Origin: an uncultured Woeseiaceae bacterium
GTDB lineage: Bacteria; Pseudomonadota; Gammaproteobacteria; Steroidobacterales; Woeseiaceae
DNA length: 64,000 nucleotides
Assembly: GCA_964615665.1 (NCBI GenBank)
Contig: CAZTQL010000001.1
Coordinates: 7,977 to 71,976, forward strand
Direction of reading: 5' to 3'
The notes under the pieces: model-generated
The model's database searches: none
Told to the model about the DNA's origin: nothing
The model's input: the letters and a program-made list of their open reading frames with translations, nothing else
Shown: one piece after another, positions 37,449 through 58,136 of the stretch
Numbering within the stretch: the first letter of the stretch is position 1
Layout of the letters: every line of letters starts with the position of its first letter
Made by a program: the position numbers and the translations under genes

Positions 37449-37450
37449 CC

Positions 37451-39965: not shown

Positions 39966-40985
39966 GTGAGCTCGACGCTTCGTTATTGCGTGCCGTTGCT
40001 CACATTGTTGCTGGCTGCCTGCGGCGGCGAGGAGCGTCTGCCCGAGTACCGGTTAACCGGCAGCACGATGGGCACGACGTACAGCGTGAAGCTAATAGCG
40101 CCGGGCGACAGCATCGACAAAGACGACCTGCAATCACGCATTACTGAGACGCTGGCGGCTGTCGACAAGCTGACGTCAACGTGGCGCGACGATTCAGAGC
40201 TCTCGCAGTTCAATGCCAATCAGAGTACCGGTTGGATCGATGTCTCTGCCGGGTTCTGCATCGCAATCGAAAGTGCCCTCGCCATCAGCCGCGCGAGCGA
40301 CGGCGCATTCGATATCACGGTCGGGCCGCTGGTTAACCTCTGGGGTTTCGGGCCGGACGGCGAACGTCAGGAACCACCGGACACCGACGTCCTTGAGGGC
40401 GTGATGGCTGATGTCGGCTTTGAAGGTATAGAACCGGGCTGCGACCGGCCCGCCGTCCGTAAGCGTAGCGGCGGCATGTACATCGACCTGTCCGGCTGGG
40501 CGAAGGGCTACGGCGTTGATCAGGTCGCCGCGGTACTCGACGACTACGCGCTAAAGGACTATCTTGTTGAAATCGGCGGTGAATTGCGGATGCGCGGCCA
40601 AAATGCCGAAGGCAGAAAATGGGCCATCGCGATCGAAACGCCGTCAACAACGACGCGCCAACCGCAGTCAGTGCTGCGCCTGACCGATACGAGCGTGGCG
40701 ACATCCGGTGATTACAGGAACTACTTTGAGCATGACGGCAAGCATTATTCCCACACGATCGACGCGCGCACCGGGCGCCCCGTCACTCACGACCTGGCGG
40801 CAGTCACGGTGATTAGCGAAACGGCCGCTTACGCCGACGCAATGGCCACCGCGCTGCTGGTGCTTGGCCCGGACAACGGACTGACGCTTGCAGAAGATCT
40901 TGGCATCGCCGGGTATTTTCTGGTACGCAACAAAACTGGCATTAAAGAAATAACAACTTCGAGCTTTGACCTTATGGGAAACTGA
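39966..40985 (+). CDS. apbE: FAD:protein FMN transferase (flavin-trafficking lipoprotein)
   Basis: Lipobox LLAAC. ApbE family motifs include MGTTYSVK, GAFDITVGPLVNLWGFG, WAKGY and SGDY. Confidence 0.92.
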   Translation: MSSTLRYCVPLLTLLLAACGGEERLPEYRLTGSTMGTTYSVKLIAPGDSIDKDDLQSRITETLAAVDKLTSTWRDDSELSQFNANQSTGWIDVSAGFCIAIESALAISRASDGAFDITVGPLVNLWGFGPDGERQEPPDTDVLEGVMADVGFEGIEPGCDRPAVRKRSGGMYIDLSGWAKGYGVDQVAAVLDDYALKDYLVEIGGELRMRGQNAEGRKWAIAIETPSTTTRQPQSVLRLTDTSVATSGDYRNYFEHDGKHYSHTIDARTGRPVTHDLAAVTVISETAAYADAMATALLVLGPDNGLTLAEDLGIAGYFLVRNKTGIKEITTSSFDLMGN

Positions 40986-41197
40986 TGACCACTGTTGTAA
41001 CCACTTTGATATTGAGTTTCCTGGTAATCCTGCTGGTCATTACCGGCATGAGCATCGGAGTTATGAACGGTCGCCGCGCCATCAGCGGTAGCTGTGGCGG
41101 CTTGAATAACGGCCGTTGCGAGCTGTGTAGCGGCGATGGTAACTGCCGCAAGAAACGCGCGCAGTCGCGCGAACAATCGGACGGAGAATCCGCATGA
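40985..41197 (+). CDS. nqrM: (Na+)-NQR maturation factor NqrM
   Basis: 70 aa with a single TM helix and the Cys-rich motif SGSCGGLNNGRCELCSGDGNC. The ATG overlaps the apbE stop. Confidence 0.85.
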   Translation: MTTVVTTLILSFLVILLVITGMSIGVMNGRRAISGSCGGLNNGRCELCSGDGNCRKKRAQSREQSDGESA

Positions 41198-41598
41198 TTA
41201 TGAAATCCTGTGTGGTTAAGGACTACATGGCGCGAACGCTTGTGACCTTCAAACCGGAAACTGAAGTACTGGACGCAATACACGAGTTGGTCAAACACCG
41301 TATTGCCGGTGCACCGGTTGTTGATGACGAAGGCAACCTCCTCGGCATGCTATCGGAACTCGACTGCATGAAGGTCGCGTTGAATGCCGGCTATCACGGC
41401 AACTCGGGCGGACCCGTGCGTGACTTCATGAGCGATGGTGTCAAAACCGTGGACGCGGAGATGAGCATCATCGACCTCGCGCAGCTGTTCATTAACTCTC
41501 GGTTTCGGCGTTTTCCGGTCATTCAGAAAACCCGGCTGGTCGGGCAGATCAGTCGCCGCGATGTGTTACGCGCGCTGGAGTCCCTGACGCAGAGTTAG
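41194..41598 (+). CDS. CBS-domain pair protein
   Basis: 134 aa with two CBS repeats (HRIAGAPVVDDEGNLLGMLSE and RFRRFPVIQKTRLVGQISRRDV). Confidence 0.85.
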   Translation: MIMKSCVVKDYMARTLVTFKPETEVLDAIHELVKHRIAGAPVVDDEGNLLGMLSELDCMKVALNAGYHGNSGGPVRDFMSDGVKTVDAEMSIIDLAQLFINSRFRRFPVIQKTRLVGQISRRDVLRALESLTQS

Positions 41599-41606
41599 CC
41601 TGATCG

Positions 41607-42362
41607 CTAGCTACTCTTGGCCAGAAAACGGGCACCCAGCGTACGTCGCCTGAGGTAGGCATAAACTTCCAGGAGCGGTAGTTCCTTCGGGCAAACGTCG
41701 GCGCAGGCCATCATGCCGAGACACCCAAACACGCCCTGCTCGCCGGCAACCACATCAAACCACTCGGCATCGGAACGCTGATCTCTCGGGTCCATCATGA
41801 AACGTGCAACCCGGTTCATGCCGGCGCCGGCCAGGAATTCGTCGTCAAGGTTCGCGACGCCGCAGGAGGCGACGCAGCAGCCACATTCGATGCAGCGGTC
41901 GCCTTCGTAGATCGCCTCGGCAATGTCGTCGCTCATGCGCTCCTCGGTCGCCTCAGGATCGAATGGCAGCTGTTCATGAATCCAGGCTTCGGTGCGCTCG
42001 GCCATCTCACGGAACCAGGTCCCGGTATCGACGGACAGGTCACCGATCAGCTTGAACGCCGGTAGCGGATACAGCTGGATGTTCTCCGGCAGGTCCGAGG
42101 TCAGCGTGCGGCACGCCAGCGCCGGCCGACCGTTCACCATCATGCCGCAAGATCCGCAAATGGCCGAGCGGCAGGCGAAGTCGAACTGCAACCCCGGGTC
42201 CAGCGTTTCACGGATCTTGCTGAGCGCGATATACAGCGACATGGACGGTGTTTCGTCGATCTCGAAAATGTCCGTGTGCGGTTCGGAATTTTCGTCTTCG
42301 GGGTTGTACCGAAAAATCTCGAACTTCAGTCGACGCGACGCTGTGCTGTGTTCCTGGGTCAT
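41607..42362 (-). CDS. sdhB: succinate dehydrogenase/fumarate reductase iron-sulfur subunit
   Basis: Three Fe-S cluster motifs: CRSAICGSCGMMVNG, CIECGCCVASC and CADVCP. Confidence 0.92.
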   Translation of the reverse strand: MTQEHSTASRRLKFEIFRYNPEDENSEPHTDIFEIDETPSMSLYIALSKIRETLDPGLQFDFACRSAICGSCGMMVNGRPALACRTLTSDLPENIQLYPLPAFKLIGDLSVDTGTWFREMAERTEAWIHEQLPFDPEATEERMSDDIAEAIYEGDRCIECGCCVASCGVANLDDEFLAGAGMNRVARFMMDPRDQRSDAEWFDVVAGEQGVFGCLGMMACADVCPKELPLLEVYAYLRRRTLGARFLAKSS

Positions 42363-42387
42363 TCCCTAAATCCTTTATTGCTGTCCC

Positions 42388-44340
42388 TTACTGCGAATAC
42401 GCTTGCCAGGCACCGCGTTTGAGTCGACTACCCATTTCTTCGCTGCTCGGCAGGCGACCATGCTGCGTCTGTTCGTGCACCACCGTCTCGTTGTAACTAT
42501 CGATCGACTGCTGCATTTCGATGCGCTCGTCGCTGCCGTAACCACGATGCCCCGGCGGCAGATCGATGAGACCGGTTGGCTCGTAGCTGAACGACGGTTC
42601 GCTTTCGTCCATGGCCCAACGGACCAGCGTGCGATTCAGCCACTCTTCGTCGTTTCGCAGCGGAAAGTCGCTGCGAAAATGTGCGCCCCGACTCTCTGTT
42701 CGAGCCCGCGCACCCATCGCAACGGTCATCGCCAATCGCAACATGCCTTTCAGGCGCAACGCAAAACCGAGCTCCGGATTCACTCCGGGATCCTTGCAAC
42801 GGAGCGCAGCGTTGTCGCAATCATCGAGCAAATGACCGATCTCGGCCACGGCTTCATTCAGTTCGTCGCCCGTTCGAAAGATCCCGACCTTGCCCATCAT
42901 GATTTCGCCGAGCGCGTCACGAATCTCGTACACGTTGCGGCCGCTGCCGCCGCCGCTGCGCGCCAACCAGTTCGCCGCCCGATCTTCAGCCGCTTTCAGT
43001 GCGTCAAACGCGATACCGGTATCGGCACGGAGTGACACCCCTGCGGCATGCTCAGCCACACGTCGGCCGACGATCCGCCCTGATACGAGTGTTTCAGCCA
43101 GGCTGTTGCCACCCAGCCGGTTGAAGCCGTGCATATCCCAGCAGGCCGCTTCGCCAACGGCGAACAGCCCGGCGAGCCCGTAAGCTTCGCCATCTTTATT
43201 CACGCGAATGCCGCCCATCGAATAATGCTGTGTCGGGCGTACCGGAATGAGTGCCTTGGCCGGGTTCAGTCCCGCGAAGTCACGGCAAATGTCCCAGACT
43301 TCCAGCAGCTTGGTACGCAGGTGTTTTTCACCCAGGTGGCGGATATCAAGCCACAGGTGCGGGCCATACGGCGAATCCGCGCCGTTGCCGTCACGCATCG
43401 TCTGCTGCATATGCCGCGACACGACGTCACGACTGGCGAGTTCCTGCTTGGCGGGCTCTTTCTCCACCATGAATCGATGCATGTTCTTGTCGAGCAGATA
43501 ACCGCCGTCACCGCGACAACCTTCGGTAACCAGGATGCCGCTCGGCGAAAGCGTGGTGGGATGGAACTGTACGGCTTCCATGTTGCCCATTGGCACAACG
43601 CCAGTATCAAGCGCAATCGACGCACCGGTACCTTCATTGATTGTTGCGTTGCTCGTGTACTGCCCGTAAATGCGCCCGTAGCCACCTGTCGCAATCACCG
43701 TGGCTTTGGCCAGCACAGCGAAGTGCTTGCCGGTGCGCAGGCAGCGCACCACGGCGCCGAGGCAGCGGCCGCCGTCGTGAATCAGCGCCACAGCTTCCGT
43801 GCGGTCGCGTACCGTGATACCGAGACGAACCACCTCGCTGTCAACGGCATAGAGTGCGGCGTGCCCCGTGCCTGCAGCCGCGTAACACGCGCGCCATTTG
43901 GCCGTGCCGCCAAAGTCTCGCTGCCCGATCAGCCCATCGTTCTCGAGGGCCTCATCGATCTCGACATGCTCGCCCTTGATAAAATACTGGTTCTTGCCGC
44001 CCTGCACGCGGCTCCAGGGCACGCCGAAATGAGCGAGCTCGCGCACTGCGATCGGCGCCTCGTCGGCGAAGATATTCGCGACTTCCTGGTCCGCACCCCA
44101 GTCCGAACCGCGAACGGTATCGAGGAAGTGCACCGTGGGATCATCACCTTCGGCCTTGGCGCAATTGCCGAGCGATGCCTGCATACCGCCCTGAGCAGCA
44201 CAGCTGTGGCTGCGTCGCGGTGGCACCAGGGACAGGATCAATGCTTCGTGTCCGGCGGCCGCCGCTTCGATGGCACAGCGCTCGCCGGCAAGACCCCCGC
44301 CGATGACCAGAACGTCGGTAGTAACCAGGGGACCCGTCAT
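42388..44340 (-). CDS. sdhA: succinate dehydrogenase/fumarate reductase flavoprotein subunit
   Basis: 650 aa. The FAD-binding N-terminus is DVLVIGGGLAGERCA. The covalent-FAD His context RSHSCAAQGGM is present, along with a HPT...GCRGDGG catalytic region. It is a long-form FrdA, as in type-B enzymes. Confidence 0.93.
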   Translation of the reverse strand: MTGPLVTTDVLVIGGGLAGERCAIEAAAAGHEALILSLVPPRRSHSCAAQGGMQASLGNCAKAEGDDPTVHFLDTVRGSDWGADQEVANIFADEAPIAVRELAHFGVPWSRVQGGKNQYFIKGEHVEIDEALENDGLIGQRDFGGTAKWRACYAAAGTGHAALYAVDSEVVRLGITVRDRTEAVALIHDGGRCLGAVVRCLRTGKHFAVLAKATVIATGGYGRIYGQYTSNATINEGTGASIALDTGVVPMGNMEAVQFHPTTLSPSGILVTEGCRGDGGYLLDKNMHRFMVEKEPAKQELASRDVVSRHMQQTMRDGNGADSPYGPHLWLDIRHLGEKHLRTKLLEVWDICRDFAGLNPAKALIPVRPTQHYSMGGIRVNKDGEAYGLAGLFAVGEAACWDMHGFNRLGGNSLAETLVSGRIVGRRVAEHAAGVSLRADTGIAFDALKAAEDRAANWLARSGGGSGRNVYEIRDALGEIMMGKVGIFRTGDELNEAVAEIGHLLDDCDNAALRCKDPGVNPELGFALRLKGMLRLAMTVAMGARARTESRGAHFRSDFPLRNDEEWLNRTLVRWAMDESEPSFSYEPTGLIDLPPGHRGYGSDERIEMQQSIDSYNETVVHEQTQHGRLPSSEEMGSRLKRGAWQAYSQ

Positions 44341-45119
44341 GACGCACCGCCTTCGAGCAAGAATGCCAGCGGCGGATCCATCCAGCCTGCCAGCACGATC
44401 AGCGTGACTCCGCCGAGCACGAGAACCAGCCAGAAAATGACCTGCTCAATGCGATGCATGGTCTGGCGCGACAACCAAAGGTCGGCGCCCCATTTGATCG
44501 CCAGCCGGTACAGGCCGACGCTTGCATGAAACTCGACACACAACAGCAGCACAGCGTACGGCAGCCAGAGGCCGGCGCTGACTCTTGCCGTTGATGTCGA
44601 TGACTCGATGCCGGCAATATCACCATACAGCGGCGTGAATATATCCATGCCCAGCAACACCAGGTGAAAGCTGCCAAGTACGAGCATGATCATTCCGGTG
44701 CGCACCTGCCAAATCCACAACAGCGACTCAACATGCGGCCGGAACGGCGAGTACTCGGTTCGAGTCGCTACCTTCTCGCGGCCGGACTGACTAAGCCCTT
44801 TGGCAAGCTGCAGAATCTGTTTGCGTTGGCGTAACTGCGACGGGATCTTGCGTGCAGCAAACACCGCATGTACCAGGAACAACGTAAAGATAGCAAACAC
44901 GGTCGGCTGGGCGATGTAGTAGTCCTCCAGCATCGTCGCCATCCAGTCGAAGCCACGCTCACCGGTCAGGATGGAGCCAACCAGGACAACGTGTCCCCAC
45001 ATGAACAGCGCCAGCAGTAAGCCACTACCGCCGCTGACTACCTCATAGGCCAGTTCGCGACGCGCGGCCGTCGTCGCAGTGGAGTGTGCATTTCGAACCG
45101 ACGATGCCTTGGTGTTCAT
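44337..45119 (-). CDS. sdhC: type-B single-subunit diheme cytochrome b membrane anchor of SQR/QFR
   Basis: The ATG at 45119 abuts the upstream stop at 45122. About 260 aa with five TM helices and four candidate heme-ligand His (WGHVV, LVHAV, SFHLV, EFHAS). The layout resembles the Wolinella/Bacillus/Geobacter FrdC/SdhC class. Confidence 0.8.
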   Translation of the reverse strand: MNTKASSVRNAHSTATTAARRELAYEVVSGGSGLLLALFMWGHVVLVGSILTGERGFDWMATMLEDYYIAQPTVFAIFTLFLVHAVFAARKIPSQLRQRKQILQLAKGLSQSGREKVATRTEYSPFRPHVESLLWIWQVRTGMIMLVLGSFHLVLLGMDIFTPLYGDIAGIESSTSTARVSAGLWLPYAVLLLCVEFHASVGLYRLAIKWGADLWLSRQTMHRIEQVIFWLVLVLGGVTLIVLAGWMDPPLAFLLEGGAS

Positions 45120-45121
45120 CT

Positions 45122-46525
45122 CTAGGGATTCAACTGTGTCAGGATTTCTGGATTCTCCTCGCGCTCGGCGAGGATCGAGTGGCAGGTATCGCAATCACGG
45201 GAAATCGTCTCTCTTTCCTTGGTCCGCAGTCGCTTGCCGTGGCAGCGATAACAACCGTCGGATCGTTCATGACCGATATGTTCGGGATAGGTGTTCCACC
45301 ACACTTTCATTTGCGGGAAGACGTTGACCGAATAAATATCTCCGAGTGTCACGGCGGCGGCCGATATATCGTCGGCCCTTGCGTTTGCAACGTCGGGGTA
45401 ATTTTCCTGGTAATACTGATTCAGCTCGGCCGTGATGACCTCGCGAGCTTCCTCGTGCGAGGCATATTCGGCATCGATAATTCGCAACGCTTCACGTCTC
45501 ACATAAGGCAGCGTTCTGTCGATCAGCCCATCACGAATTGCGACATCAATTTCTGAATCCGGCGCCTGATAATTATGGCTGGGCCGATTGTGACAATCGA
45601 CACAATCCATTTGCCGCCACACGCCGCCGTCTTCCGGAGCCTTTCTATCAGCATACAGCTTGACCTCGCCCTCTTCGTTGGCGTATTCGACTTCGTAAAT
45701 CTCTTCTCGCGTGTCATCTGATCGGTAGCGAATGCTGACGCCAGGATCGACATGCCAGTGTATTCCCGACGACTTCTTACCGGCCTCGCCGCCGACTCTC
45801 AACAACAGAGCCGTCGTCAACTCCGTGTTGGCCTCGTCTTCTTCGTAATGTTTCTTGATCTTCAGCTTGTCGCCCACAAAGCGAGTTGGCCAATGGCACT
45901 GCTCGCAAGTATCGCGCGCCGGGCGCAAATCATGCAGTGGTGTTGGGATCGGTCGCGGATAGAGGTCGAACGCCACTGACACCAGCTGCCAGGCACCATC
46001 CAGTTTCGACTTCACAAACCAGTCCGCACCAGGACCGATATGGCAATCGGCACACAACAACCGCGAGTGCGACGAACGTTGGAACGCCGTGTGTTCAGGT
46101 TCCATCACAGAATGGCAGGCAAGCCCACAAAACTCGACCGACTCCATTACCTCGACGCCTTTGTAGGTTGCACCGGCCACGATGACTACGTTGACCATCG
46201 TTGCACCGAGCAGTATCAGCATCCAGTTACGTGTCTTCGGCTTGTTGAGGTCGAAGATCGGCAACAACGGCATCGACTCGCCACCTGGCGACCGGCGAAT
46301 CCTGCGCCGGTATAACAACGTTCCCAGAGGAATCAGTATCAGCCCGACGACAAAGATCATCGGCAATATCAGAAACGTGATAATGCCGAGATAGGGCCCG
46401 CCCTCGAAGCCAACCTGTGTCATAAAAATCAGGCTGAAGATAAGCACCAGGGCCGCGATTGCAAGCCCGGTGCCGAACAGACTCAGACCGTTCCGGGTAA
46501 TCGACGCTAGAAAACTCTTAAACAC
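45122..46525 (-). CDS. membrane-anchored NapC/NirT-type multiheme cytochrome c (ImcH-like), 5 CXXCH plus 1 CX3CH
   Basis: 467 aa with three N-terminal TM helices. The heme sites are CGLACH (CX3CH, verified on DNA at 46112-46129), CADCH, CEQCH, CVDCH, CYRCH and CDTCH. Confidence 0.8.
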   Translation of the reverse strand: MFKSFLASITRNGLSLFGTGLAIAALVLIFSLIFMTQVGFEGGPYLGIITFLILPMIFVVGLILIPLGTLLYRRRIRRSPGGESMPLLPIFDLNKPKTRNWMLILLGATMVNVVIVAGATYKGVEVMESVEFCGLACHSVMEPEHTAFQRSSHSRLLCADCHIGPGADWFVKSKLDGAWQLVSVAFDLYPRPIPTPLHDLRPARDTCEQCHWPTRFVGDKLKIKKHYEEDEANTELTTALLLRVGGEAGKKSSGIHWHVDPGVSIRYRSDDTREEIYEVEYANEEGEVKLYADRKAPEDGGVWRQMDCVDCHNRPSHNYQAPDSEIDVAIRDGLIDRTLPYVRREALRIIDAEYASHEEAREVITAELNQYYQENYPDVANARADDISAAAVTLGDIYSVNVFPQMKVWWNTYPEHIGHERSDGCYRCHGKRLRTKERETISRDCDTCHSILAEREENPEILTQLNP

Positions 46526-46556
46526 AAATTACCCTCTGATGAGTACCTGCCCGTTT

Positions 46557-48428
46557 TCAGGGCCGGTTTTCCTGTTGCTCGGTTGGTTCATCATAAACGA
46601 CCTCGCCGCGTTCTTCTGCCCTTGAGAACGGCGGTTTACCGGTCCGCCAGGTCGTATCCATCGGATACACCGCTGGATCGAAGATGACAAAGTAGAAGTG
46701 CCAGATGAGGATAGCGAGGGTAGCCAGGATCGCCTCCAGGAAATGCAGCACGGTGGCAGCCTCGGGCACCCAGCCCGGCAGCCAGGTCAGCGTGAAGTTC
46801 TCGAACCACAACACCAGCCCCGTGAGTGCCGTGACGAAGGTACCCCATAGCGCGGCCCAGTATTCGACCTTCTCCACATAGCCGACGCGCACGGGCGCGG
46901 GTGGCTCGGGACGGCGCCCGAGGTTGTAGCCTATCCGGTGGATAAACTCCTTGAAATCGACAAGACCAGGAAGGAACGCCGCGATCTGGTGCCGAGCACT
47001 GGCACTGATTGCAAGATGGCCGAAGTGGAAGAAGCAGGCGCCCATCAGACCGACGGCCGCTATGCGATGAATCAGGCCGCGGAATTCGCCACTGCCAATC
47101 TGCACGAGCTCTGCCCACCAGCTCTCGGGGTATTTCAAAGCAAAACCGCTGACTACCAGTACCATAAAGCTCACAGCCGCTATAACGTGCGCGATCCGAA
47201 ATGGCTTCGACATGCGTTCTTTGATCATGCAGTTTTCCGGGGGCCTGCGCAGGCGCGGCGCCGGATCACGTGCCTTCTTGTTCAGATCGAGCAGGTTGTG
47301 CAACAGCATGCCGATGACCGTGACCCAGATCAGCGGGATATAAATGAGCCGGATCCAGTACGCGACAATGTTGGGTGGCTGGTCGGCCAACATGTGCACG
47401 GGGCCGAGCTCGAAACGGCTGCCCGCTCCCAGGTGACATTGGCCGCAGGTCTCCGCCAGGTTGTCCGGATGAATGTGAGAGCCGGGGTCGCTGGAAGGCA
47501 GGATGTAATGTACACCGTGACAGCTCGCACAATTCGCGACCTTTTGCACGCCTCCGCGTGCAGCAAGCCCATGGAAGCTGTCCTCATAGGAAGGGACCTG
47601 CTCAGCATCCAGTCCGTATTTCTCGCCCAGGCGCAAATCCGAATGGCAGGGGCCACAGACACGGATCGGAATGTTGGTCGCCGATACCGGTGAGCCCTCC
47701 GCGGCCACGGCCAGAATTCGATGCTCGCCATGACAATCCGTGCAGACGGGCGAGTCATCGATGCCGTTGGCGGCGGCCAGGCCATGAATACTCTGCTCGA
47801 ACTTGGCAGTGATCTCAGCATGACAGGTACCGCAGGTGCCTGGCACATTTGAACGGTGGATCGAAGAAGCAGGGTCTGCGGCCGGAAGCGGCGAGTGAGC
47901 GGAATGGCAATCGCTGCAGCCCGCGCCATGCTCGCCATTGATCACTGCGGCGGCATGCACACTGGCGGTATAGGCTTCTATCGGGCGAATCGTGCGAACG
48001 CCCGCGGGTGCCGGCTGCCCGGAGCCATGGCAGGCCCCGCAGGTCTCTCCCTGACGGCTGGCGTGTACGGGAGAGGATCGCTCAGTCGCTAGCGTCATGG
48101 CATGTATTTCGCCATGACAACTCGAACATGAGGGAAGCTCCAGGTCAGACATGCGTTGCCGGCCCTCCGATCCATGCACGCTCACACTCTGTTCGTCGAC
48201 AGCCTCCGCATGACAACCCGCACAGCCGACCGGATCGAGCCCGCGCCTGTGCCGACGTTCCCCGCCAACATGGCAATCAAGGCATTCCGTGGCGCCGTGC
48301 GGGGTGCTCTCAAAGAGCGCCACATCGACTTCGTGGCAATCGTTGCAGGGATGTTCATCCTCCTCGGCGTCGACCGTCTGAAACACGAACAGCAGGCAGG
48401 GAACCAGGATGGTTAGCAGTTTGCGCAT
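46557..48428 (-). CDS. fusion protein: periplasmic 11-heme cytochrome c plus C-terminal membrane diheme cytochrome b domain (CbcL-like)
   Basis: 623 aa with a signal peptide. The 11 CXXCH sites are CNDCH, CLDCH, CAGCH, CSSCH, CGACH, CSDCH, CGTCH, CTDCH, CGPCH, CASCH and CGQCH. About 5 TM helices follow, with conserved His (IAHVI, LIHRIAAV, LHFLEA...IWHFYF). Confidence 0.85.
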   Translation of the reverse strand: MRKLLTILVPCLLFVFQTVDAEEDEHPCNDCHEVDVALFESTPHGATECLDCHVGGERRHRRGLDPVGCAGCHAEAVDEQSVSVHGSEGRQRMSDLELPSCSSCHGEIHAMTLATERSSPVHASRQGETCGACHGSGQPAPAGVRTIRPIEAYTASVHAAAVINGEHGAGCSDCHSAHSPLPAADPASSIHRSNVPGTCGTCHAEITAKFEQSIHGLAAANGIDDSPVCTDCHGEHRILAVAAEGSPVSATNIPIRVCGPCHSDLRLGEKYGLDAEQVPSYEDSFHGLAARGGVQKVANCASCHGVHYILPSSDPGSHIHPDNLAETCGQCHLGAGSRFELGPVHMLADQPPNIVAYWIRLIYIPLIWVTVIGMLLHNLLDLNKKARDPAPRLRRPPENCMIKERMSKPFRIAHVIAAVSFMVLVVSGFALKYPESWWAELVQIGSGEFRGLIHRIAAVGLMGACFFHFGHLAISASARHQIAAFLPGLVDFKEFIHRIGYNLGRRPEPPAPVRVGYVEKVEYWAALWGTFVTALTGLVLWFENFTLTWLPGWVPEAATVLHFLEAILATLAILIWHFYFVIFDPAVYPMDTTWRTGKPPFSRAEERGEVVYDEPTEQQENRP

Positions 48429-48462
48429 TGGAATAATCTCAGGTCTTCGTTTAGCCCGACCT

Positions 48463-51318
48463 CTAACGGTAACCGAACAGCATCGTGTAAATGATCAGGC
48501 TCAGCAGAACCAGCCCGAAGGCGAGTGCCGCGAAGCCGAATATCCTCACGCCGCGTTCTTTACCCTCTGGGAAGGCTTTCACGAGATGATTCTCCAGCTC
48601 ACCGGATTTCACCATCGCTTCGTACTCGCCAGGCTTATCGTATTTCAGCTCTTCCACGGATATCCGCCCACTGAATATCACGGGATCCATGGGGAACTTG
48701 TCGGGCCGGAAGTGTGTGTTGAAGAAATGAATCGTAAATATGAAACCGACCGCGAGCAGCGCCTCGTCACTGTGGATGATCGTCGCCACGTTGACGGCCC
48801 AGCCAGGAACGATGTAGGTGAACGTTTCGGGGAACCACAGGACCAACCCTGTCGTACCAATTATGGCCACACCCCAGGCAACCGCGAAGTAGTCGAACTT
48901 CTCCCAATACGTGTAACGACCGTAACTGGGGCGGGGGCCCATGCCGAAGAACCACTTGATGGACTGGATGAACTCCTTGAGGTCGCGGCCGTTGAAAATG
49001 ATGGAATCCGGTCCGGTAATGATCTGCAACCAGGTGTGCCCCGTGGTCTTCTTGTGACGAAGCACATCGATCACGTGCGCAATGAAGACGCCGATCAACA
49101 CAACCGCACCGACGCGATGCAGGAATCCCATACTATCGAACCCGCCGAGGACCCTGGAGGTCAACTGTGCCCAGAACATATACGAAAATTTCAATGCCAT
49201 GCCCGTCAACGCCAGCGTGAAGAAGCTGAGCATCATTACGACATGCATGGTGCGCTGGTAGCGACTGAATCGACGGTAGAATTTCTGGTCTTTGTTGCGG
49301 GCAATAGCCTTATGCGCCTTCCACTCTTCGCGGTTCAGCAATAGGCGTACAACCCAGGCCAGCGTATGCAGCAGCGCAAACGACAGCGTACCGACCAGCA
49401 ACGCGGTCATGCCCCAGAAGGACCAGAACAACCACGGGTAGGTCGCGCGATCGTGGTGCGTCGCGTGTGTCAGGTAGCCGGCAAAACGCCGGTGCGATCC
49501 TTCGTGACACTGGCCACAAGTCTCAACCACGTTGTCGCGGCTAAGCCGCGAGGCAGGGTCGGCGGGACTGAGAATATCGTGCGTGCCATGACAGTCGTAA
49601 CACTTGGCAACGCCCTCTGCGCCGAGGCGCGAGACCTTGCCGTGAAACGTGTCAAAGTAGGTCTCAGTCTGGTCTTCGTGACAGCGGCCGCACTGCTCCA
49701 TCATCTCTGTGCGGAATCCCACATCTTCGGTGCGAGAGATCGTGTGCGAAGCGTGACAGTCCTCGCAGGTGGGATACTCTTTGTCGGGATCCGGGTCGTC
49801 AGACCAGTGGACGCTGGCGCGGAACGTCTCCTCTACCCCGTGGTGGCAGGTACCGCAGGTGCCAGCGATATTTTGTGGACTCACGGGGGACTCCGGATCC
49901 TCCGGAGGACGCTCGGAGTGTGCGCCATGACAATCGGCGCAGGTTGCCGACACGATGAGGCCGGCATTCAAGGCTCGACCATGAACGCTGTCTTCATAGC
50001 TGCCCACGATATCGTCCACTTTGGCGTGGATCCGGGTCGCGGCCTGTTCACCGACGCGATGACACTCTCCGCATAGCGCGGGGACGTTACGCGGATAGGT
50101 AGGCGACACGGGAAGTTCACTGCCGAGTGTGGCGTGTTTGGCATGGCAGTCCCGGCAGATCGGTGCATCCGGATCGTCTTGCGCATGCAGGGTTCCGTGC
50201 GCACTGCCCTGGTACTCGGTGACCTGTTCGGCATGGCAGATGCTGCAATCCACGGGTGACTGCACAGTTTCGCAGGCGCGTTCCTGGGCGACCGTCACAT
50301 CCGTGTGACATTGAGCGCAGGCGGTGTCTGCATGCATCGAGCCCTCGTAGGCCTGCTCGTCAACGTACAGACTGACGGTTTCTCCATCGCGAGTCATCGC
50401 CAGATCCGTCTGGCTATGGCAGGTCAGGCAATCCTTGTCGGCCAGACCGTCAGGGTAGAAAACGGCGCGAATCTTGTGTGGGGCATGGCAGTCGACGCAG
50501 GCCGGAATCTTGCCCGGATTTTCCTCCCACAGATTGCCTTCGATCACCTTGCGATGAACGCGCTCAATCTGCCCATGGCAGGTAGTGCACATCGTAGCGA
50601 CATTGTCCGGGTGGATGCTCGACCGAGGATCGGTATGCGGAAGGATGTCATGAGACGTGTGACAGGAAGTACAGACGGCTGTGACGGTGAGGCCTTGCTG
50701 GAACAGGCCCTCGCCGTGAATACTCATCGAGTAATTCTCGATGATGTTGTCCTGGGAGATCTCGTGAGTTCGCGATACGGGAGCGCCCTCGCGGTGACAA
50801 CTGCCGCAGAGCAGCGGCACGTTCATTATCGCTGTCGACGCGTCCGGATCCGAGGCTGACAGGACTTCGTGCTTGCCGTGGCAGTCGGCACAATTCGGTG
50901 CCATCGGATCGCCGTTTTTTGCGGCCGTGCCATGCAGGCTGCCGCCATGCGCTCTCGCCTGGGACTTGTGGCAATCACCACAATCGACAGGCTCCAGGTC
51001 CTCAGCGTGCCGCCGACGTTTTGACCCGGCAAGGTCCTTGTGACAATCCACACAGGCAGTACCGGCGTGCACGGAAGTGGCGCCCGCTTTCGCGGCAACA
51101 TAGACCGAAATCTCCTCATCTCCGCGGTAACCGGTAAGCTCCGGGTCGTCATGACACTTGAGGCATCTGCTGTCCTCCTGCGCCAATGCGGGCGTTCCTG
51201 CGAACCAGAGAATCGCGGTCGCCGCGACGAACCAAAAGGTTCGGCGACTACTTGGGAGGAGTCGGTGGCCGGGCGAGCGGCCACGCGAAAGACGCGCGAG
51301 GAGAGCGACCTTTGTCAT
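48463..51318 (-). CDS. fusion protein: periplasmic 19-heme cytochrome c plus C-terminal membrane diheme cytochrome b domain (CbcL-like, expanded)
   Basis: 951 aa with a signal peptide ending ALAQE and 19 CXXCH motifs. About 6 TM helices follow, with His positions matching the paralog (TMHVV, FLHRVGAV, IIHSDEA...TIHFF). Confidence 0.85.
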   Translation of the reverse strand: MTKVALLARLSRGRSPGHRLLPSSRRTFWFVAATAILWFAGTPALAQEDSRCLKCHDDPELTGYRGDEEISVYVAAKAGATSVHAGTACVDCHKDLAGSKRRRHAEDLEPVDCGDCHKSQARAHGGSLHGTAAKNGDPMAPNCADCHGKHEVLSASDPDASTAIMNVPLLCGSCHREGAPVSRTHEISQDNIIENYSMSIHGEGLFQQGLTVTAVCTSCHTSHDILPHTDPRSSIHPDNVATMCTTCHGQIERVHRKVIEGNLWEENPGKIPACVDCHAPHKIRAVFYPDGLADKDCLTCHSQTDLAMTRDGETVSLYVDEQAYEGSMHADTACAQCHTDVTVAQERACETVQSPVDCSICHAEQVTEYQGSAHGTLHAQDDPDAPICRDCHAKHATLGSELPVSPTYPRNVPALCGECHRVGEQAATRIHAKVDDIVGSYEDSVHGRALNAGLIVSATCADCHGAHSERPPEDPESPVSPQNIAGTCGTCHHGVEETFRASVHWSDDPDPDKEYPTCEDCHASHTISRTEDVGFRTEMMEQCGRCHEDQTETYFDTFHGKVSRLGAEGVAKCYDCHGTHDILSPADPASRLSRDNVVETCGQCHEGSHRRFAGYLTHATHHDRATYPWLFWSFWGMTALLVGTLSFALLHTLAWVVRLLLNREEWKAHKAIARNKDQKFYRRFSRYQRTMHVVMMLSFFTLALTGMALKFSYMFWAQLTSRVLGGFDSMGFLHRVGAVVLIGVFIAHVIDVLRHKKTTGHTWLQIITGPDSIIFNGRDLKEFIQSIKWFFGMGPRPSYGRYTYWEKFDYFAVAWGVAIIGTTGLVLWFPETFTYIVPGWAVNVATIIHSDEALLAVGFIFTIHFFNTHFRPDKFPMDPVIFSGRISVEELKYDKPGEYEAMVKSGELENHLVKAFPEGKERGVRIFGFAALAFGLVLLSLIIYTMLFGYR

Positions 51319-51330
51319 CTTTTTGTTTTT

Positions 51331-51383
51331 CCCTGATGCCAGAGTCCCTAGTTAAGGTAATAAGACACTGTTTGGTATCAGGG
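51331..51383 (-). promoter_or_regulatory. imperfect inverted repeat (11-nt arms, about 31-nt loop) in the leader of the 19-heme gene
   Basis: ccctgatgcca (51331-51341) pairs with tggtatcaggg (51373-51383) with one mismatch. On the minus-strand RNA the 3' arm overlaps the AGGGA Shine-Dalgarno-like element about 13 nt before the ATG at 51318. Confidence 0.3.
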
Positions 51384-51420
51384 ATTTCCGAGGGCGGCCT
51401 TTCGTTACCGCGCGGCGGCG

Positions 51421-51795
51421 TCAGGCGGCATACAGCGGACTGATGTCCATGTAGATCTTGTAGTGCGCGATCAATTCGCCGTCGACCTCAAAAATGTCGG
51501 TAAACGGCAGCGTAATCTCGGTACCGTCCGACCGGGTATAAGTCACCTCACCCTCGATGAGTTGCGTCGACCCATCCACGACGACCTTCGCAATAGCATG
51601 AGATAAGCCGGCGATTGTGCCGAAGAACCCGTCGACGGCCGCCGCAACGGCGTCACGTCCCTGCACAGGCGGAGCAGAACCAAAACGAAACACGGCGTCG
51701 TCGCTCAGGAAGCCGACGAACGCCGTGGTGTCTTGCCGATCAATGGCGGCAAAAACGCCGCCAGTATCAAAACTGGCGGCGGGTGCCTCTGTCAT
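51421..51795 (-). CDS. NTF2/SnoaL-like fold protein
   Basis: 124 aa with no signal peptide. The pattern (FLSDDAVFRFG...GRDAV...F..I....H, C-terminal IAHYKIYMD) is typical of SnoaL-like small proteins. The ATG overlaps the upstream stop (ATGA). Confidence 0.6.
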   Translation of the reverse strand: MTEAPAASFDTGGVFAAIDRQDTTAFVGFLSDDAVFRFGSAPPVQGRDAVAAAVDGFFGTIAGLSHAIAKVVVDGSTQLIEGEVTYTRSDGTEITLPFTDIFEVDGELIAHYKIYMDISPLYAA

Positions 51796-52403
51796 TGAAC
51801 GCTGCCGTAGTAATGAACCAAAGCTGTTACGTCATCTGCGGACAACATAGCCACTTTTTCTTTCATTTTCTTCGGTTGATCGCGCGAGCCGTCAACGAAC
51901 TGCGCCATGGTGGTTTCCAGATAGCCCATCATCTGTCCACCCATCATGCCGGCTTCGTCTTCGGCATTGGTGCCAGCATCTGAATGACACTTGTCGCAGT
52001 GCTCGTCGTGCAGAGCCTTGCCTGCGTCAACCAGACCGGCATCAAAGTCCTGTTTTACTTTCACATAGTCGAGCTCGGCGTACGCTAAAGCGATCGCGTC
52101 GATATCGTCCTCGCTCAACTCTGCCGCTATCGCGCACATCGTCGTGGCAGGTTTGCCCGTATCGCCATGCCGATATTCAGATTCCGCACAGGGCCGGCCT
52201 TCTTCCTGGTAAACATACAGCGCATCGACGTGCACGAACTCGGGAAAACCGGCTAGCGTCGGTACGTCGCTCGATTCACTGACGCCACCGGGGCCATGGC
52301 AGCTATTACAGTCAGCCATCATCGACTCTACGTCGCCTGCATTGGCGGAAGTGGCAGCGAGCGCCAGCAAGGCTGCTGCTGTGGAAAAAATTAGTCGTTT
52401 CAT
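51792..52403 (-). CDS. periplasmic diheme class-I cytochrome c (c4-like)
   Basis: The ATG at 52403 is preceded by GGAG and gives signal peptide MKRLIFSTAAALLALAATSANA. Two CXXCH motifs (CNSCH, CDKCH) sit in two domains of about 90 aa each. The upstream 36 codons of the ORF were rejected. Confidence 0.8.
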   Translation of the reverse strand: MKRLIFSTAAALLALAATSANAGDVESMMADCNSCHGPGGVSESSDVPTLAGFPEFVHVDALYVYQEEGRPCAESEYRHGDTGKPATTMCAIAAELSEDDIDAIALAYAELDYVKVKQDFDAGLVDAGKALHDEHCDKCHSDAGTNAEDEAGMMGGQMMGYLETTMAQFVDGSRDQPKKMKEKVAMLSADDVTALVHYYGSVQ

Positions 52404-52670
52404 GTCGTCTCCTCGGAGTTCCGATCTCTTGCGGGTTATTACCACGATTATCGTTGCTGCAATCTGAATACACCCTGAACGAGGGCGCGTTTCGACTGCG
52501 GGGTTTAGCATATTATCAGGCCGCCTCCAAGCGACAACCAGTAGGTAGATGCCGTGATATCATCTACAGACGTATTTGTTACAACACATACCTTGAATTT
52601 ATAACGATTCTAAACGGGGCAACTGGTTAAGAATCAATCACTTACAACATCGACCTTCTGAGGGAACGAC
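52404..52670. promoter_or_regulatory. divergent promoter/control region between the two cytochrome operons
   Basis: 267-bp, visibly AT-richer non-coding gap. A candidate sigma70-like element for mtrC is TTGTTA (52576-52581), 17 nt, TTATAA (52599-52604). The palindrome TGATATCA lies at 52555-52562. Confidence 0.4.
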
Positions 52671-54926
52671 ATGAGCCGTCCATTCGACCCCCGATCTAAA
52701 ATTTTGAGCCTTCTATGCGCATCCGCATTACTGTTCGCATGCAGTGGAGATACGGGCCCGACGGGCCCGGCCGGAGCGTCTGGTTCAACCGGTTCGACCG
52801 GACCCGGCGGATCCACCGGCTCGACAGGCGGCACCGTGTCCGCTTTGGTACCGATCCAGTCGGTGGAAAAAATCAACGTGTCGTACGACAGCGTAGCGAT
52901 TGAGGCCGGCGGCCAGGCTCCCGACATCTTAATGCGCCTGACGGACGATTTCGGCTTCGGGATCACCGGTCTGCCGGCGGCAAGCGTGGGCTTTACGTTG
53001 GCACAGCTTTCGCCAGGCCAGGACGGTGGTTCGAGCGAATGGCAGTCATACGTGACGCGCAACAGCGCCGGAATTGAGAACGCGCAGGCAACAACGGAAT
53101 CGGCCGGCGCAGGCAGCTTCACGGATAACGGCGACGGCACCTATACCTATGTCTTCGCACAGAACCTGCCCGACTATGCGGGCGGCCCCACATTCGACGC
53201 CAACAAGATTCACCGTCTCGGCGTGGAGATTCGCACCGATCGCGGCGGCTTCCTGCCCGAGAACATCCCGGCGAACAACGCACCGTTTGATTTTGTGCCG
53301 GCCGGCGGCAGCCCCGCCGATCTGGAGCAGCGACTTATTGTCAACAACGACGCCTGCAATGCCTGTCATGACAACCTCGAACTGCACGGTGAAGCGCGCT
53401 TCGATGTCGAGTATTGCGTGACCTGCCATAACCCCTACTCCGTCGATGGCGATACCGCCGACGAGCCGTGGGGCGGCTCGGTTGATATGACAGTGATGAT
53501 CCACAAGATTCACTTTGGCGTGAATCTGACCAACGGTTACCGAGTTGTTGGGTACGGTGGCTTTGAGCACGACTACTCCGACGTCGAATTTCCGCAGGAC
53601 GTACGCAACTGCACAACCTGCCACCAGGAATCGAACGACGCGGTACCGCAAGCCAGCAACTGGCGCACCGTGCAGAACCGCGCCGCCTGTGGCACCTGCC
53701 ATGACGACATCGACTGGGAAGGCGGCACGCATCCGGGTGGCTTTGTCTTCACAGACGACCTGCAATGTCAGGATTGTCACGATGACACCGCTCCGGCGAC
53801 TGAGGCTAAACTCCGGGTCTCCGAAGCGCATGCCCAGCCCAATCGCGAGGCTAGCGAACGATTCGCTTACAACATCCTGGATATCAGTGAGACCGACGTC
53901 GGAGACTTCCCGGTGATCCAGTACTCGGTCACCGACCCAACCAACGGCGACGCGCCTTACGATCTTCTAGGCGATCCGGAATGGACCGTTTGTGGCCCGG
54001 CCCGACTGGCTGTAGGCATTGCCTGGGATACGGCCGACTATCACAATAACGATAGCGGCAACGCCCCGGGCCTGGGCGTATCGATGAACGCGATCAACTG
54101 TTTCGGTGGTTCTCCTGCCGACCTCGGTGCCGGTGTGTTTAGCGTCACTTCACCGGTTGCCGTACCTGCCACCGCCGGTGGGTCGCTCGCGGTAACCATT
54201 GACGGGCATCCCGCGGTCGATATCGGCGGCACGCTCGAGCGGATCGCCGTGACCAATGCCGTGGCCTATGCGGCAATAACGGACGCCACAGCCAAGCCAC
54301 GCCGCAACGCGGTCGCCATTGAAAAGTGCGACGACTGCCATAGTCAGCTGGCGATACATGGCAATAACCGCACGGACAACATCGAGGTTTGTGTGACCTG
54401 TCATGCGCCGAATGCCACCGATGTCAACCAACGTGGCGGCGACTGCGAAACTGACCTTGGTCTCGATGATTCGTCGATTGACATGAAGTACATGATCCAT
54501 GCGATCCACGCGTCTGGGACCATTGAAGTTCCTTACGAGGTTTGCGGATTCGGCAACTCAACCCACGTGTATGACTTTGTTTACCCGGGCAAGCTGAACA
54601 ATTGCGAAGGCTGCCATGTCCCGGGCGGCTATTACCCGGTTGATCCGAGCAATGTACTTGGCACGACCGTCGATACTGGCCCGGACAAGACCACGCCAAT
54701 GGATGACAAGGTCGTATCGCCGAACTCGTCTGTCTGCTCGTCCTGTCATACGAGCACGCTTGCGGCGAATCACATGACCCAGAACGGTGGTGACTTCGAT
54801 GCGAGAAAATCCGCGGACAGCACGCTGATATCGTCCGGCGCAGAGACCTGCGAACTCTGCCACGGAGAAGGCCGTCAGTCGGATGTCAAGGTAGTGCACG
54901 GTATCGAAGCGTTCGAGTTCAACTAA
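52671..54926 (+). CDS. mtrC: OmcA/MtrC-family outer-surface decaheme cytochrome c lipoprotein
   Basis: 751 aa with lipobox LLFACSG and 10 CXXCH motifs in a 5+5 arrangement split by a heme-free region of about 180 aa. The overall layout (heme-free N-terminal domain, pentaheme, heme-free, pentaheme) matches MtrC. It is followed by mtrA and mtrB. Confidence 0.88.
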   Translation: MSRPFDPRSKILSLLCASALLFACSGDTGPTGPAGASGSTGSTGPGGSTGSTGGTVSALVPIQSVEKINVSYDSVAIEAGGQAPDILMRLTDDFGFGITGLPAASVGFTLAQLSPGQDGGSSEWQSYVTRNSAGIENAQATTESAGAGSFTDNGDGTYTYVFAQNLPDYAGGPTFDANKIHRLGVEIRTDRGGFLPENIPANNAPFDFVPAGGSPADLEQRLIVNNDACNACHDNLELHGEARFDVEYCVTCHNPYSVDGDTADEPWGGSVDMTVMIHKIHFGVNLTNGYRVVGYGGFEHDYSDVEFPQDVRNCTTCHQESNDAVPQASNWRTVQNRAACGTCHDDIDWEGGTHPGGFVFTDDLQCQDCHDDTAPATEAKLRVSEAHAQPNREASERFAYNILDISETDVGDFPVIQYSVTDPTNGDAPYDLLGDPEWTVCGPARLAVGIAWDTADYHNNDSGNAPGLGVSMNAINCFGGSPADLGAGVFSVTSPVAVPATAGGSLAVTIDGHPAVDIGGTLERIAVTNAVAYAAITDATAKPRRNAVAIEKCDDCHSQLAIHGNNRTDNIEVCVTCHAPNATDVNQRGGDCETDLGLDDSSIDMKYMIHAIHASGTIEVPYEVCGFGNSTHVYDFVYPGKLNNCEGCHVPGGYYPVDPSNVLGTTVDTGPDKTTPMDDKVVSPNSSVCSSCHTSTLAANHMTQNGGDFDARKSADSTLISSGAETCELCHGEGRQSDVKVVHGIEAFEFN

Positions 54927-55879
54927 TGGCGACATTAGTTACTCGTCGCGGCTGGCTTAGCCTGCCCGTGCTGATGATGGCTCTCGTGGCCATCGCAGCG
55001 CCGGCCACGTCGTTGGCCCAGGATGACGAAGCGCCAAGCTATAGTAAGGAAGGCGCGGACACCTGCTTCAAATGCCATGACGATCAAGTCGTGTTGGGCG
55101 TATTTCGCACCAAGCATGCGGTACCGACGGATCCAAACTCCCCGTTTGGGCACGGCCAGTTGCAGTGCGAAGCGTGCCACGGTCCTGGCGGCGACCACTC
55201 CGGGCGCGTGCGCCGCGGTAAGGAACGGCCGGTTATGGTGCGCTTTGGCTCCGATAGCGGCACGCCGGTGCCCGAGCAGAACTCATACTGCCTGGACTGT
55301 CATTTGCCCGATGCCGGGTTCGCCTGGCACGGGAGCGCTCACGACGACAACACGGTCGCCTGCGCCGACTGCCATGACAGCCACGTCGAACGTGACCCGG
55401 TCCTCGCAACAACGACTCAGGCCGAGGTTTGCTTCGACTGCCATCAGCAGCAACGCACCGCGTCGATGAAACCGTACGCGCACCCACTGCGTGACGGCAA
55501 AATGACATGCACCGGCTGCCACAACACGCATGGCGATACGACCGAGCTGCTGCTGGCCCGCACAACCACCAATCAGACCTGCTTCGACTGTCACGCAGAA
55601 AAACGCGGGCCCTACCTCTGGGAACATGCGCCTGCTGCCGAGGACTGCGGCAACTGTCACGATCCGCACGGCTCCAACCATCCGGGCATGCTGTCGAAGC
55701 GCGCTCCGCTACTCTGCCAGAGCTGCCATTCACAGGACGGCCATCCGAGCCTGCCGCAGGATGAACGTGGCCTGCCATCCGGCACGGCCTCTCGATTCCT
55801 GCTGGGTCAGAGCTGTCTCAACTGCCATGAACAGGTGCACGGATCGAACCATCCGTCCGGCACCAAGCTAATGCGCTAG
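54926..55879 (+). CDS. mtrA: MtrA/DmsE-family periplasmic decaheme cytochrome c
   Basis: 317 aa with a signal peptide and 10 CXXCH motifs at high density (CFKCH, CEACH, CLDCH, CADCH, CFDCH, CTGCH, CFDCH, CGNCH, CQSCH, CLNCH). The ATG overlaps the mtrC stop (TAATG). Confidence 0.92.
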   Translation: MATLVTRRGWLSLPVLMMALVAIAAPATSLAQDDEAPSYSKEGADTCFKCHDDQVVLGVFRTKHAVPTDPNSPFGHGQLQCEACHGPGGDHSGRVRRGKERPVMVRFGSDSGTPVPEQNSYCLDCHLPDAGFAWHGSAHDDNTVACADCHDSHVERDPVLATTTQAEVCFDCHQQQRTASMKPYAHPLRDGKMTCTGCHNTHGDTTELLLARTTTNQTCFDCHAEKRGPYLWEHAPAAEDCGNCHDPHGSNHPGMLSKRAPLLCQSCHSQDGHPSLPQDERGLPSGTASRFLLGQSCLNCHEQVHGSNHPSGTKLMR

Positions 55880-55891
55880 GAGCGTCGTGCG

Positions 55892-58012: not shown

Positions 58013-58136
58013 GCCGGGCTTCGAACCCCGCACCTGAATCTACCGGGCCCCTTTCCTTTCAATATCTTGCGACGGCGGCGATTGGTGGAGTTTTACGGAA
58101 GATCAGTCCTTTCACTAACAGCATTCGGAGAAACAA

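Follow-up and report, generated by a model that had tools for sequence, protein, structure and literature searches.

CbcL of Geobacter sulfurreducens is an experimentally characterised menaquinol oxidase that is needed for low-potential extracellular acceptors, and in Geobacter both ImcH and CbcL use menaquinol as substrate. G. sulfurreducens CbcL (GSU0274) has 619 amino acids (aa), nine heme motifs and six helices, including a C-terminal one at residues 589–611 (PMC6295460). In the survey of the CbcL/MtrH/MtoC family by Zhong & Shi (2018; PMC6295460), members from 15 phyla have 3–23 N-terminal CX2CH motifs, lengths of 416–1034 aa and mostly six helices, a few having four or five; their membrane region is HydC/FdnI-like with conserved histidines, their pairwise identity ranges from 28.6 to 100%, and their genes often adjoin mtrAB or mtoAB. 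Some genomes of Desulfuromonadales and Syntrophus have imcH homologs adjoining homologs of cbcL. Here we analysed a window of 64,000 nucleotides (nt) from an uncultured Woeseiaceae bacterium (GCA_964615665.1, contig CAZTQL010000001.1, positions 7,977 to 71,976), in which a gene at 46557–48428(-) encodes a 623-aa protein, named A623, and its upstream neighbour at 48463–51318(-) a 951-aa protein, named B951. The reading that we consider likely is that A623 is a bc-cytochrome of the CbcL/MtrH/MtoC family, one of three quinol oxidases feeding an Mtr conduit, and an ancient paralog of B951.

The interval 46557–48428(-) is an open reading frame (ORF) of 623 codons with an ATG start, and its product is a predicted multiheme bc-cytochrome of the inner membrane ("A-type"), which combines 11 c hemes with an FdnI-like b domain for two hemes and has five helices past the signal peptide. 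The signal peptide (residues 1–21, MRKLLTILVPCLLFVFQTVDA; 48366–48428(-)) is a hydrophobic segment, with a helix at residues 2–15 in the AlphaFold2 model, and from reading the sequence its cleavage would fall after VDA. The periplasmic multiheme c domain (residues 22–345; 47394–48365(-)) carries 11 CXXCH motifs, at residues 28, 49, 69, 101, 130, 171, 199, 229, 258, 300 and 328, and no variant motifs. Only about 0.06 CXXCH motifs would be expected from the composition of A623 (25 Cys and 37 His in 623 residues), so the 11 motifs are not due to chance. All 11 motifs and ten c-domain histidines outside them are invariant in 35 orthologs (63–88% identity) and in B951, and two more c-domain histidines are nearly invariant in the same set; these non-motif histidines probably suffice for bis-histidine ligation of all 11 c hemes. 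The layout given in an earlier note on this DNA, a 623-aa protein with a signal peptide, 11 CXXCH motifs in a multiheme domain, a transmembrane helix and a b-type domain, is borne out by the ORF, the motifs, the PF01292 match described below and the helices. The paired CXXCH modules of that note are also present, but they number four rather than three when judged by a spacing of 28–29 residues (101/130, 171/199, 229/258 and 300/328).

The membrane domain of A623 (residues 346–623; 46560–47393(-)) consists of a linker helix (TM0, residues 354–387), a K/R-rich cytoplasmic loop and four FdnI-like helices. Residues 405–586 match PF01292 (Ni_hydr_CYTB, the prokaryotic cytochrome b561 family that includes FdnI and HyaC) with 41.8 bits against a cutoff of 30.1. 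The AlphaFold2 model, with a predicted local distance difference test (pLDDT) of 70 and a predicted template modelling score (pTM) of 0.48, shows five long helices after the c domain. A Foldseek search with this model gave FdnI (1kqf_C) as the best match in the Protein Data Bank (PDB), with an E value of 1.7e-4, a probability of 1.00 and a target TM-score of 0.68 over 213 of 216 residues; HyaC (4gd3_A), the sole further b-cytochrome among the top matches, stood third in the list. The heme-b ligands of FdnI in the 1KQF structure, which we take to be H18, H57, H155 and H169, align with H414, H454, H562 and H577 of A623 and with H692, H734, H849 and H864 of B951. These four histidines are conserved at 98–100% in 193 A-like and 16 B-type sequences. 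The K/R-rich loop, read in the sequence between the linker helix and the first FdnI-like helix, fits a cytoplasmic placement and hence a periplasmic c domain.

FdnI and HyaC of Escherichia coli thus share with A623 the four-helix fold, all four heme-b histidines and, presumably, a quinone site on the cytoplasmic side. They differ from it in being stand-alone subunits that dock on iron-sulfur subunits, with 17–19% identity, no linker helix and no c-heme domain. Three further histidines, H345, H377 and H468 of A623 (about 47025–47396(-); H618, H651 and H748 of B951), are kept at 92–100% in both b-domain clades and are not found in FdnI, which has Met at the position of H468; the lack of H377 and H468 extends to HyaC. 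H377 sits in the linker helix, and H468 in the second FdnI-like helix, 14 residues past the TM2 ligand; the three might belong to a quinone site or to a third cofactor. A search of PDB sequences gave no close relative of solved structure for A623, B951 or the ImcH homolog encoded beside them. Decay of the A623 or B951 gene was considered and rejected, the heme motifs and b-heme ligands being invariant across orthologs.

The product of the neighbouring gene, B951 (48463–51318(-)), is a "B-type" cytochrome of the CbcL/MtoC family with 19 CXXCH motifs, an FdnI-like b domain and a sixth, C-terminal helix. BLASTP aligned A623 residues 34–619 with B951 residues 319–900 at 33% identity (E 2e-89), so that A623 covers the C-terminal two thirds of B951 from end to end. 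The sequence blocks pointed out in the earlier note are present in the two proteins (LIHRIAAV/FLHRVGAV, GLVLWFENFT/GLVLWFPETF and FDPAVYPMD/FRPDKFPMDP), and its example of a paired module, CASCHGVHYILPSSDPGSHIHPDNLAETCGQCH, is present in A623. The claim that the two have the same architecture holds over the aligned length, but it overlooked that B951 ends with a strongly hydrophobic helix (residues 926–944), whereas A623 stops 18 residues past the b domain. This sixth helix, on a tail of about 60 residues, occurs in 15 of 15 B-type proteins and in none of 193 A-like proteins.

The difference in heme number was traced to B951 itself. Its heme spacings are 37, 24, 30, 28, 45, 28, 30 and 23, followed by 37, 24, 30, 28, 44, 28, 30, 25, 30 and 28 residues. 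B951 residues 1–292 match its own residues 285–615 at 40% identity (E 1e-54) and A623 at only 28%. Since the self-match and the repeated spacings exceed the likeness to A623, the eight-heme block was, on this comparison, duplicated inside the B lineage: hemes 1–8 of B951 are a duplicate of its own hemes 9–16, with three further hemes added. A gain of heme modules, as the earlier note had proposed, did therefore take place, in B951. The heme count is labile in both clades, as proteins with A-like b domains have 9–19 motifs and B-type proteins have 11, 19 or 21. Residues 26–33 of B951 (51219–51242) include SRRTFWF, which resembles a twin-arginine motif and is probably just part of a Sec signal. 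The c-type cytochromes are normally exported by Sec, and twin-arginine export would be unusual.

By its architecture and its 33% identity to a B-type member, A623 is a predicted member of the CbcL/MtrH/MtoC family: it has the N-terminal CX2CH region, the HydC/FdnI-type membrane region and the conserved b-heme histidines. CbcL and A623 have nearly the same length (619 and 623 aa), and a comparison of the published motif and helix tables showed in both an N-terminal periplasmic multiheme c domain fused by one helix to a HydC/FdnI-like di-heme b domain. Their membrane-proximal heme spacings are also alike (28, 43 and 28 in CbcL; 29, 42 and 28 in A623), which may be taken as a weak lead. CbcL differs in having nine hemes rather than 11 and a sixth helix, which is absent from A623 and from all 193 A-like proteins. 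MtoC and MtrH, from the mtoAB and mtrAB clusters of Dechloromonas, Gallionella and Rhodoferax, resemble A623 in the fusion architecture and in the association with an MtrAB-type conduit, and share the last heme spacings 25, 30 and 28 with B951 (again a weak lead). Unlike A623, they have nine hemes and six helices, are proposed to be quinone reductases in Fe(II) oxidisers, and have no adjoining imcH reported. CbcBA of G. sulfurreducens likewise pairs a membrane-bound di-heme b protein with one carrying multiple c hemes, and acts in quinol oxidation near the thermodynamic limit; it differs from A623 in being made of two separate subunits, with seven hemes and a c subunit anchored by its own C-terminal helix.

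Closer counterparts of B951 are already on record. Table S2 of the family survey lists 19-heme proteins of 906–952 aa from Caldithrix abyssi (Cabys_319), Ignavibacteria (OGU58019.1) and Omnitrophica, together with MAF27600.1 and a 951-aa protein of a "Gemmatimonadetes" metagenome-assembled genome (MAG) (PMC6295460). These correspond to B951 in length (about 920–952 aa), in motif and helix positions to within a few residues, and in having six helices; A623 lacks their duplicated eight-heme block and their sixth helix, and its b domain belongs to the other clade. The 11-heme entries of the same table (649–761 aa, six helices) resemble an 11-heme B-type protein (locus L026 of the survey described below) and not A623, and the layout of A623 (about 620 aa, five helices) was not found among the entries of the 2018 family tables (PMC6295460). 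The missing sixth helix marks A623 as belonging to a subgroup and does not exclude it, since the family tolerates members with four or five helices. A623 is a new, uncharacterised member of an already published family, in a subgroup without the sixth helix.

The gene order around A623 is pdsA-like, snoaL, 19-heme cbcL, 11-heme cbcL, imcH and frdCAB, with mtrCAB divergent. Directly downstream of A623, the gene at 45122–46525(-) encodes an ImcH-family quinol oxidase of 467 aa. This protein has three N-terminal helices (residues 16–34, 47–65 and 102–120), an atypical CX3CH motif (CGLACH, residue 133) adjoining the third of these, and CXXCH motifs at 158, 207, 308, 425 and 445, five in number where the family has 5–9. 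These positions match those of the Anaeromyxobacter dehalogenans ImcH homolog in Table S3 of the family survey, which has 468 aa and motifs at 134, 158, 207, 309, 425 and 445 (PMC6295460). The protein matches PF03264 (NapC/NirT-like region) above the cutoff, and the heme-1 residues of Geobacter ImcH (E127, K173, Q179 and Y188) correspond to E128, K174, Q180 and Y189, with a uniform offset of +1. On these sequence characters, the product of 45122–46525 has every published ImcH-defining feature. The parallel with Geobacter drawn in the earlier note is more than an analogy, both cytochromes having the CbcL/MtrH/MtoC layout and the gene downstream of them being of the ImcH type.

On the opposite strand, mtrC (52671–54926), mtrA (54926–55879) and mtrB (55892–58012; all +) were identified with NCBIfam profiles, all above their cutoffs: TIGR03507 (OmcA/MtrC decaheme) with 479.7 bits (cutoff 209), TIGR03508 (MtrA/DmsE decaheme) with 282.4 (192) and TIGR03509 (MtrB/PioB porin) with 377.3 (240). 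MtrC, MtrA and MtrB contain 10, 10 and no CXXCH motifs, respectively, and the three proteins are predicted to form an outer-membrane electron conduit. In a locus survey of one genome per GTDB species, from which the locus numbers (L) used here are taken, the same cluster with mtrCAB was also found in Woeseiaceae loci L004–L006 and L008. The gene at 51792–52403(-), with a likely start at MKRLIFS, encodes a PdsA-like periplasmic diheme cytochrome with two CXXCH motifs. It covers the whole of profile NF049874 (9–198 of 198) with 169 bits and does not reach the cutoff of 330, so it is labelled PdsA-like only. The genes frdCAB/sdhCAB (41607–45119(-)), for a di-heme cytochrome b subunit, a flavoprotein and an iron-sulfur subunit, lie directly after imcH. 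The same-strand gaps of the cluster (34 nt between the 19-heme and 11-heme genes, 31 nt, and 2 nt between imcH and frdCAB) are compatible with co-transcription, as far as spacing can indicate it.

We infer the following mechanism, drawing on FdnI and on what has been published about CbcL and ImcH. Quinol, probably menaquinol, would be oxidised near the cytoplasmic b heme of A623, with release of protons to the cytoplasm. The two b hemes would carry the electrons across the membrane, aided by the membrane potential, and the 11 c hemes would relay them into the periplasm, where the PdsA-like diheme carrier and/or MtrA would receive them. MtrCAB would then pass them out of the cell to Fe(III)/Mn(IV) minerals. 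Three putative quinol oxidases, the 19-heme CbcL-type protein, the 11-heme type and ImcH, are encoded in a row. ImcH would be the alternative exit, with a quinol site on the periplasmic (P) side, and would form an electroneutral branch that spares the proton motive force, whereas A623 and B951 would form potential-assisted branches with the quinol site on the cytoplasmic (N) side. By analogy, three adjacent oxidases are in keeping with Geobacter, for which branching according to potential is known, and A623 and B951 might differ in redox window or periplasmic reach, as the earlier note suggested. A supply of menaquinone is implied by the presence of menA at 32743–34089(+), with its real start probably near 33200 (TIGR00751, 120 bits, cutoff 102).

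Several points weigh against this reading. The AlphaFold2 model of A623 is only moderately confident (pLDDT 70). A623 has five helices, and most published family members have a sixth. Its homology to CbcL, MtoC and MtrH is indirect, running via B951 (33%) and the layouts in the published tables. In the tree of b domains described below, rooting with E. coli FdnI and HyaC (17–19% identity) was unstable, the outgroup pair being recovered in 64 of 100 replicates and monophyly of the A-like sequences in one of 100, so this root is too unstable to settle the A and B clades as sisters. The domain architecture, heme-binding residues, FdnI-like fold, topology signals and gene context of A623 are observed, while quinol oxidation, the quinone species, the partners and the direction of electron flow are all things that we infer for the 11- and 19-heme members. 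Members of the CbcL family also occur in Fe(II) oxidisers (MtoC), and a reverse direction of flow is possible.

In such a reverse direction the bc-cytochromes would act as quinone reductases, like MtoC, with electrons from Fe(II), metal sulfides or reduced solids entering via MtrCAB and PdsA, reaching the quinone pool and perhaps passing on to fumarate via the adjacent FrdCAB. CbcL, MtrH and MtoC are found in Fe(III) reducers and Fe(II) oxidisers alike, with no sequence feature that tells the two apart; the native flow through FdnI runs from the periplasm to quinone; Woeseiaceae have been described as sulfur-oxidising autotrophs, possibly using extracellular electron transfer with metal sulfides; and the position of frdCAB directly downstream is conserved in Woeseiaceae loci. 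However, ImcH homologs are so far known only from reducers, where they act as quinol oxidases, MtrCAB clusters that contain MtrC and are accompanied by pdsA are characteristic of reducers, and genome surveys read the mtrCAB of Woeseiaceae as iron reduction (PMC12175321). We therefore regard the reverse direction as unlikely.

A bolder reading, to which we would give a rather slim chance, is that the five-helix A-type cytochromes with 11 or 13 hemes are a distinct, undescribed subfamily with ImcH as conserved partner, adjacent in about two thirds of loci in at least six phyla, the pair possibly working as a unit such as a proton-motive redox loop. H377 and H468 would then belong to a novel quinone site or to a third cofactor, and in Woeseiaceae this unit, together with the 19-heme CbcL and MtrCAB, would be a major unrecognised route of benthic Fe/Mn reduction.

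In a redox loop proper, periplasmic cytochromes of low potential would supply the electrons with which the A-type protein reduces quinone at the N side, electrogenically as in Fdn-N, and ImcH would re-oxidise the quinol at the P side for higher-potential acceptors. The predicted quinone sites of the two do lie on opposite membrane faces, and in the survey an ImcH-type gene was found within 3 kb of 52 of 79 A-type loci, across many phyla, compared with a B-type gene within 3 kb of 24 (both in 16). Against this, the idea is drawn purely from synteny and topology, ImcH and CbcL of Geobacter are genetically separable and used at different potentials, and the cluster encodes no low-potential periplasmic donor system; we consider the loop improbable.

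The preferred reading of A623 also holds that it and B951 are ancient paralogs. The earlier note had instead proposed a tandem duplication at this locus, and had named beforehand, as a test that could refute it, whether the two b domains are each other's closest relatives. When the membrane domain of A623 was searched against 1.84 billion cluster representatives, 1897 clusters matched at E ≤ 1e-3, of which 227 reached E ≤ 1e-30, so the family is large and old. The b domains of A623 and B951 scored 97 bits against each other (E 1e-22), below all of the best 150 representatives of 50%-identity clusters (each at least 143 bits). Thus, by score, the b domain of B951 is less close to that of A623 than the b domains of at least 150 clusters, and of about 227 or more, and the outcome of the test named in the note goes against a tandem duplication. 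In a neighbour-joining tree of 209 complete b domains with 100 bootstrap replicates, the B951-like b domains formed a bipartition in 100 of 100, with distances within the clade of up to 0.87 and a minimum distance to A-like sequences of 1.24. At the DNA level, nothing beyond matches of up to 20 nt was found between the two genes.

Each protein also has its own relatives in other phyla. Thermoanaerobaculia proteins (L010 and L015) share 64% identity with B951, whose b domain groups with that of L010 in 91 of 100 replicates; A623 is 50–53% identical to Acidobacteriota orthologs. The closest relatives of A623 form more than 100 metagenome clusters at 63–88% identity, the named ones among them from Woeseiaceae or gammaproteobacterial MAGs and under generic names such as "cytochrome c3 family protein" and "cytochrome b subunit of formate dehydrogenase". 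In the locus survey, the eight best A623 loci were Woeseiaceae-like (72–85% identity), followed by Thermoanaerobaculia and other Acidobacteriota (about 50%) and, at 34–47%, by Terriglobia, Vicinamibacteria, Calditrichia, Ignavibacteria, Omnitrophota, Latescibacterota and others. B-type, A-type and imcH genes occur together in all eight Woeseiaceae loci. The two types also adjoin in Acidobacteriota, Calditrichia and Ignavibacteria, where an ImcH homolog usually accompanies them, and the order B-type, A-type, imcH on one strand recurs in Acidobacteriota (L016 and L017) and Calditrichia (L048).

By these comparisons, A623 and B951 are ancient paralogs from two distinct, widespread orthologous groups, and the B-type/A-type/imcH block most likely came as a unit, by inheritance or transfer, rather than being created in Woeseiaceae. 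Independent acquisition, the alternative implied in the earlier note, does not follow, the pair plus imcH looking like an old block. The GC content and the third-position GC content (GC3) of the cluster genes match those of housekeeping genes, so any transfer into the Woeseiaceae lineage was not recent. A tandem duplication here in the Woeseiaceae lineage, with either the 11-heme or the 19-heme gene as the parent of the other and heme modules lost or gained afterwards, would suit two genes that adjoin on the same strand and are homologous end to end, but is hardly credible in view of the low protein identity and lack of nucleotide likeness, the orthologs of each gene at 50–64% in other phyla (often adjoining there too), the separate b-domain clades with a clade-specific sixth helix, the more than 150 cluster representatives closer to A623, and the origin of the extra eight hemes from hemes 9–16 of B951 itself and not from A623.

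The main result is accordingly a corrective one, in that A623 and B951 constitute an old, conserved two-paralog module and not a fresh duplication. Woeseiaceae, also called the JTB255 group, occur worldwide and in very large numbers in marine sediments. For sediment members, mtrCAB has been reported only recently (PMC12175321), and a literature search found no description of CbcL- or ImcH-type inner-membrane genes in Woeseiaceae; Baker et al. (2022), in their survey of Mtr clusters, name neither CbcL, ImcH nor Woeseia. The window contains a complete and compact candidate pathway that mixes parts from different model organisms: a Geobacter-type ImcH with two CbcL-family cytochromes, a Vibrio/Aeromonas-type PdsA-like shuttle, a Shewanella-type MtrCAB and a nearby menA. 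The interest lies mainly in this complete hybrid cluster for extracellular electron transfer in an ecologically dominant sediment lineage, and also in the conservation across phyla of the module of imcH, 11/13-heme and 19/21-heme genes. If the three oxidases do serve different acceptor potentials, potential-dependent branching would be a general feature and not a peculiarity of Geobacter, and would be horizontally shared across Acidobacteriota, Calditrichia, Ignavibacteria and Gammaproteobacteria.

Some further features of these loci were recorded. In three Woeseiaceae loci, L004 (11851–13185), L005 (11845–13176) and L008 (3120–4451), the 11-heme gene runs in the opposite direction to imcH and the 19-heme gene, so the module has been rearranged within the family; an ORF of about 443 aa separates the 11-heme and 19-heme genes in the same three loci. 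frdCAB starts 2 nt past the imcH stop, an adjacency kept in Woeseiaceae L001–L005 but missing from other phyla. The arrangement may tie succinate/fumarate into the same pool of quinone, or be coincidental. Genes for an MtrA-like decaheme protein and an MtrB-like porin lie within a few kb of imcH and the A-type gene in Thermoanaerobaculia L009, L012, L013 and L038 and in many other loci; the 2018 survey by Zhong & Shi reported no mtrAB adjoining imcH (PMC6295460). The menA gene stands directly upstream of nqrABCDEF (34110–39959) and apbE (39966–40985), about 12.5 kb from the A623 gene.

Scans of 41000–58600 for promoter and terminator consensus sequences gave fewer sites than shuffled controls and are uninformative on transcription units, and Rfam and tRNA scans of the whole window gave nothing, neither a riboswitch nor a tRNA-flanked island boundary. 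Between the pdsA-like and 19-heme genes lies a gene for a SnoaL-like protein of 124 aa (51421–51795(-)), which has no NCBIfam match and is found at the same position in Woeseiaceae L001, L002, L004–L006 and L008. A strong hairpin at 51756–51781(-), with a 10-bp stem containing eight G–C pairs and followed by TTTTT, is located just past the stop of the pdsA-like gene, in the first SnoaL codons; it could be an internal terminator, an attenuator or a chance structure. Two ORFs without Pfam or NCBIfam match lie downstream of mtrB: one at 58176–58553(-), 125 aa, looks spurious, and the other, at 58593–59636(-), encodes 347 aa with a Walker-A-like motif, GTSMSAGKT.

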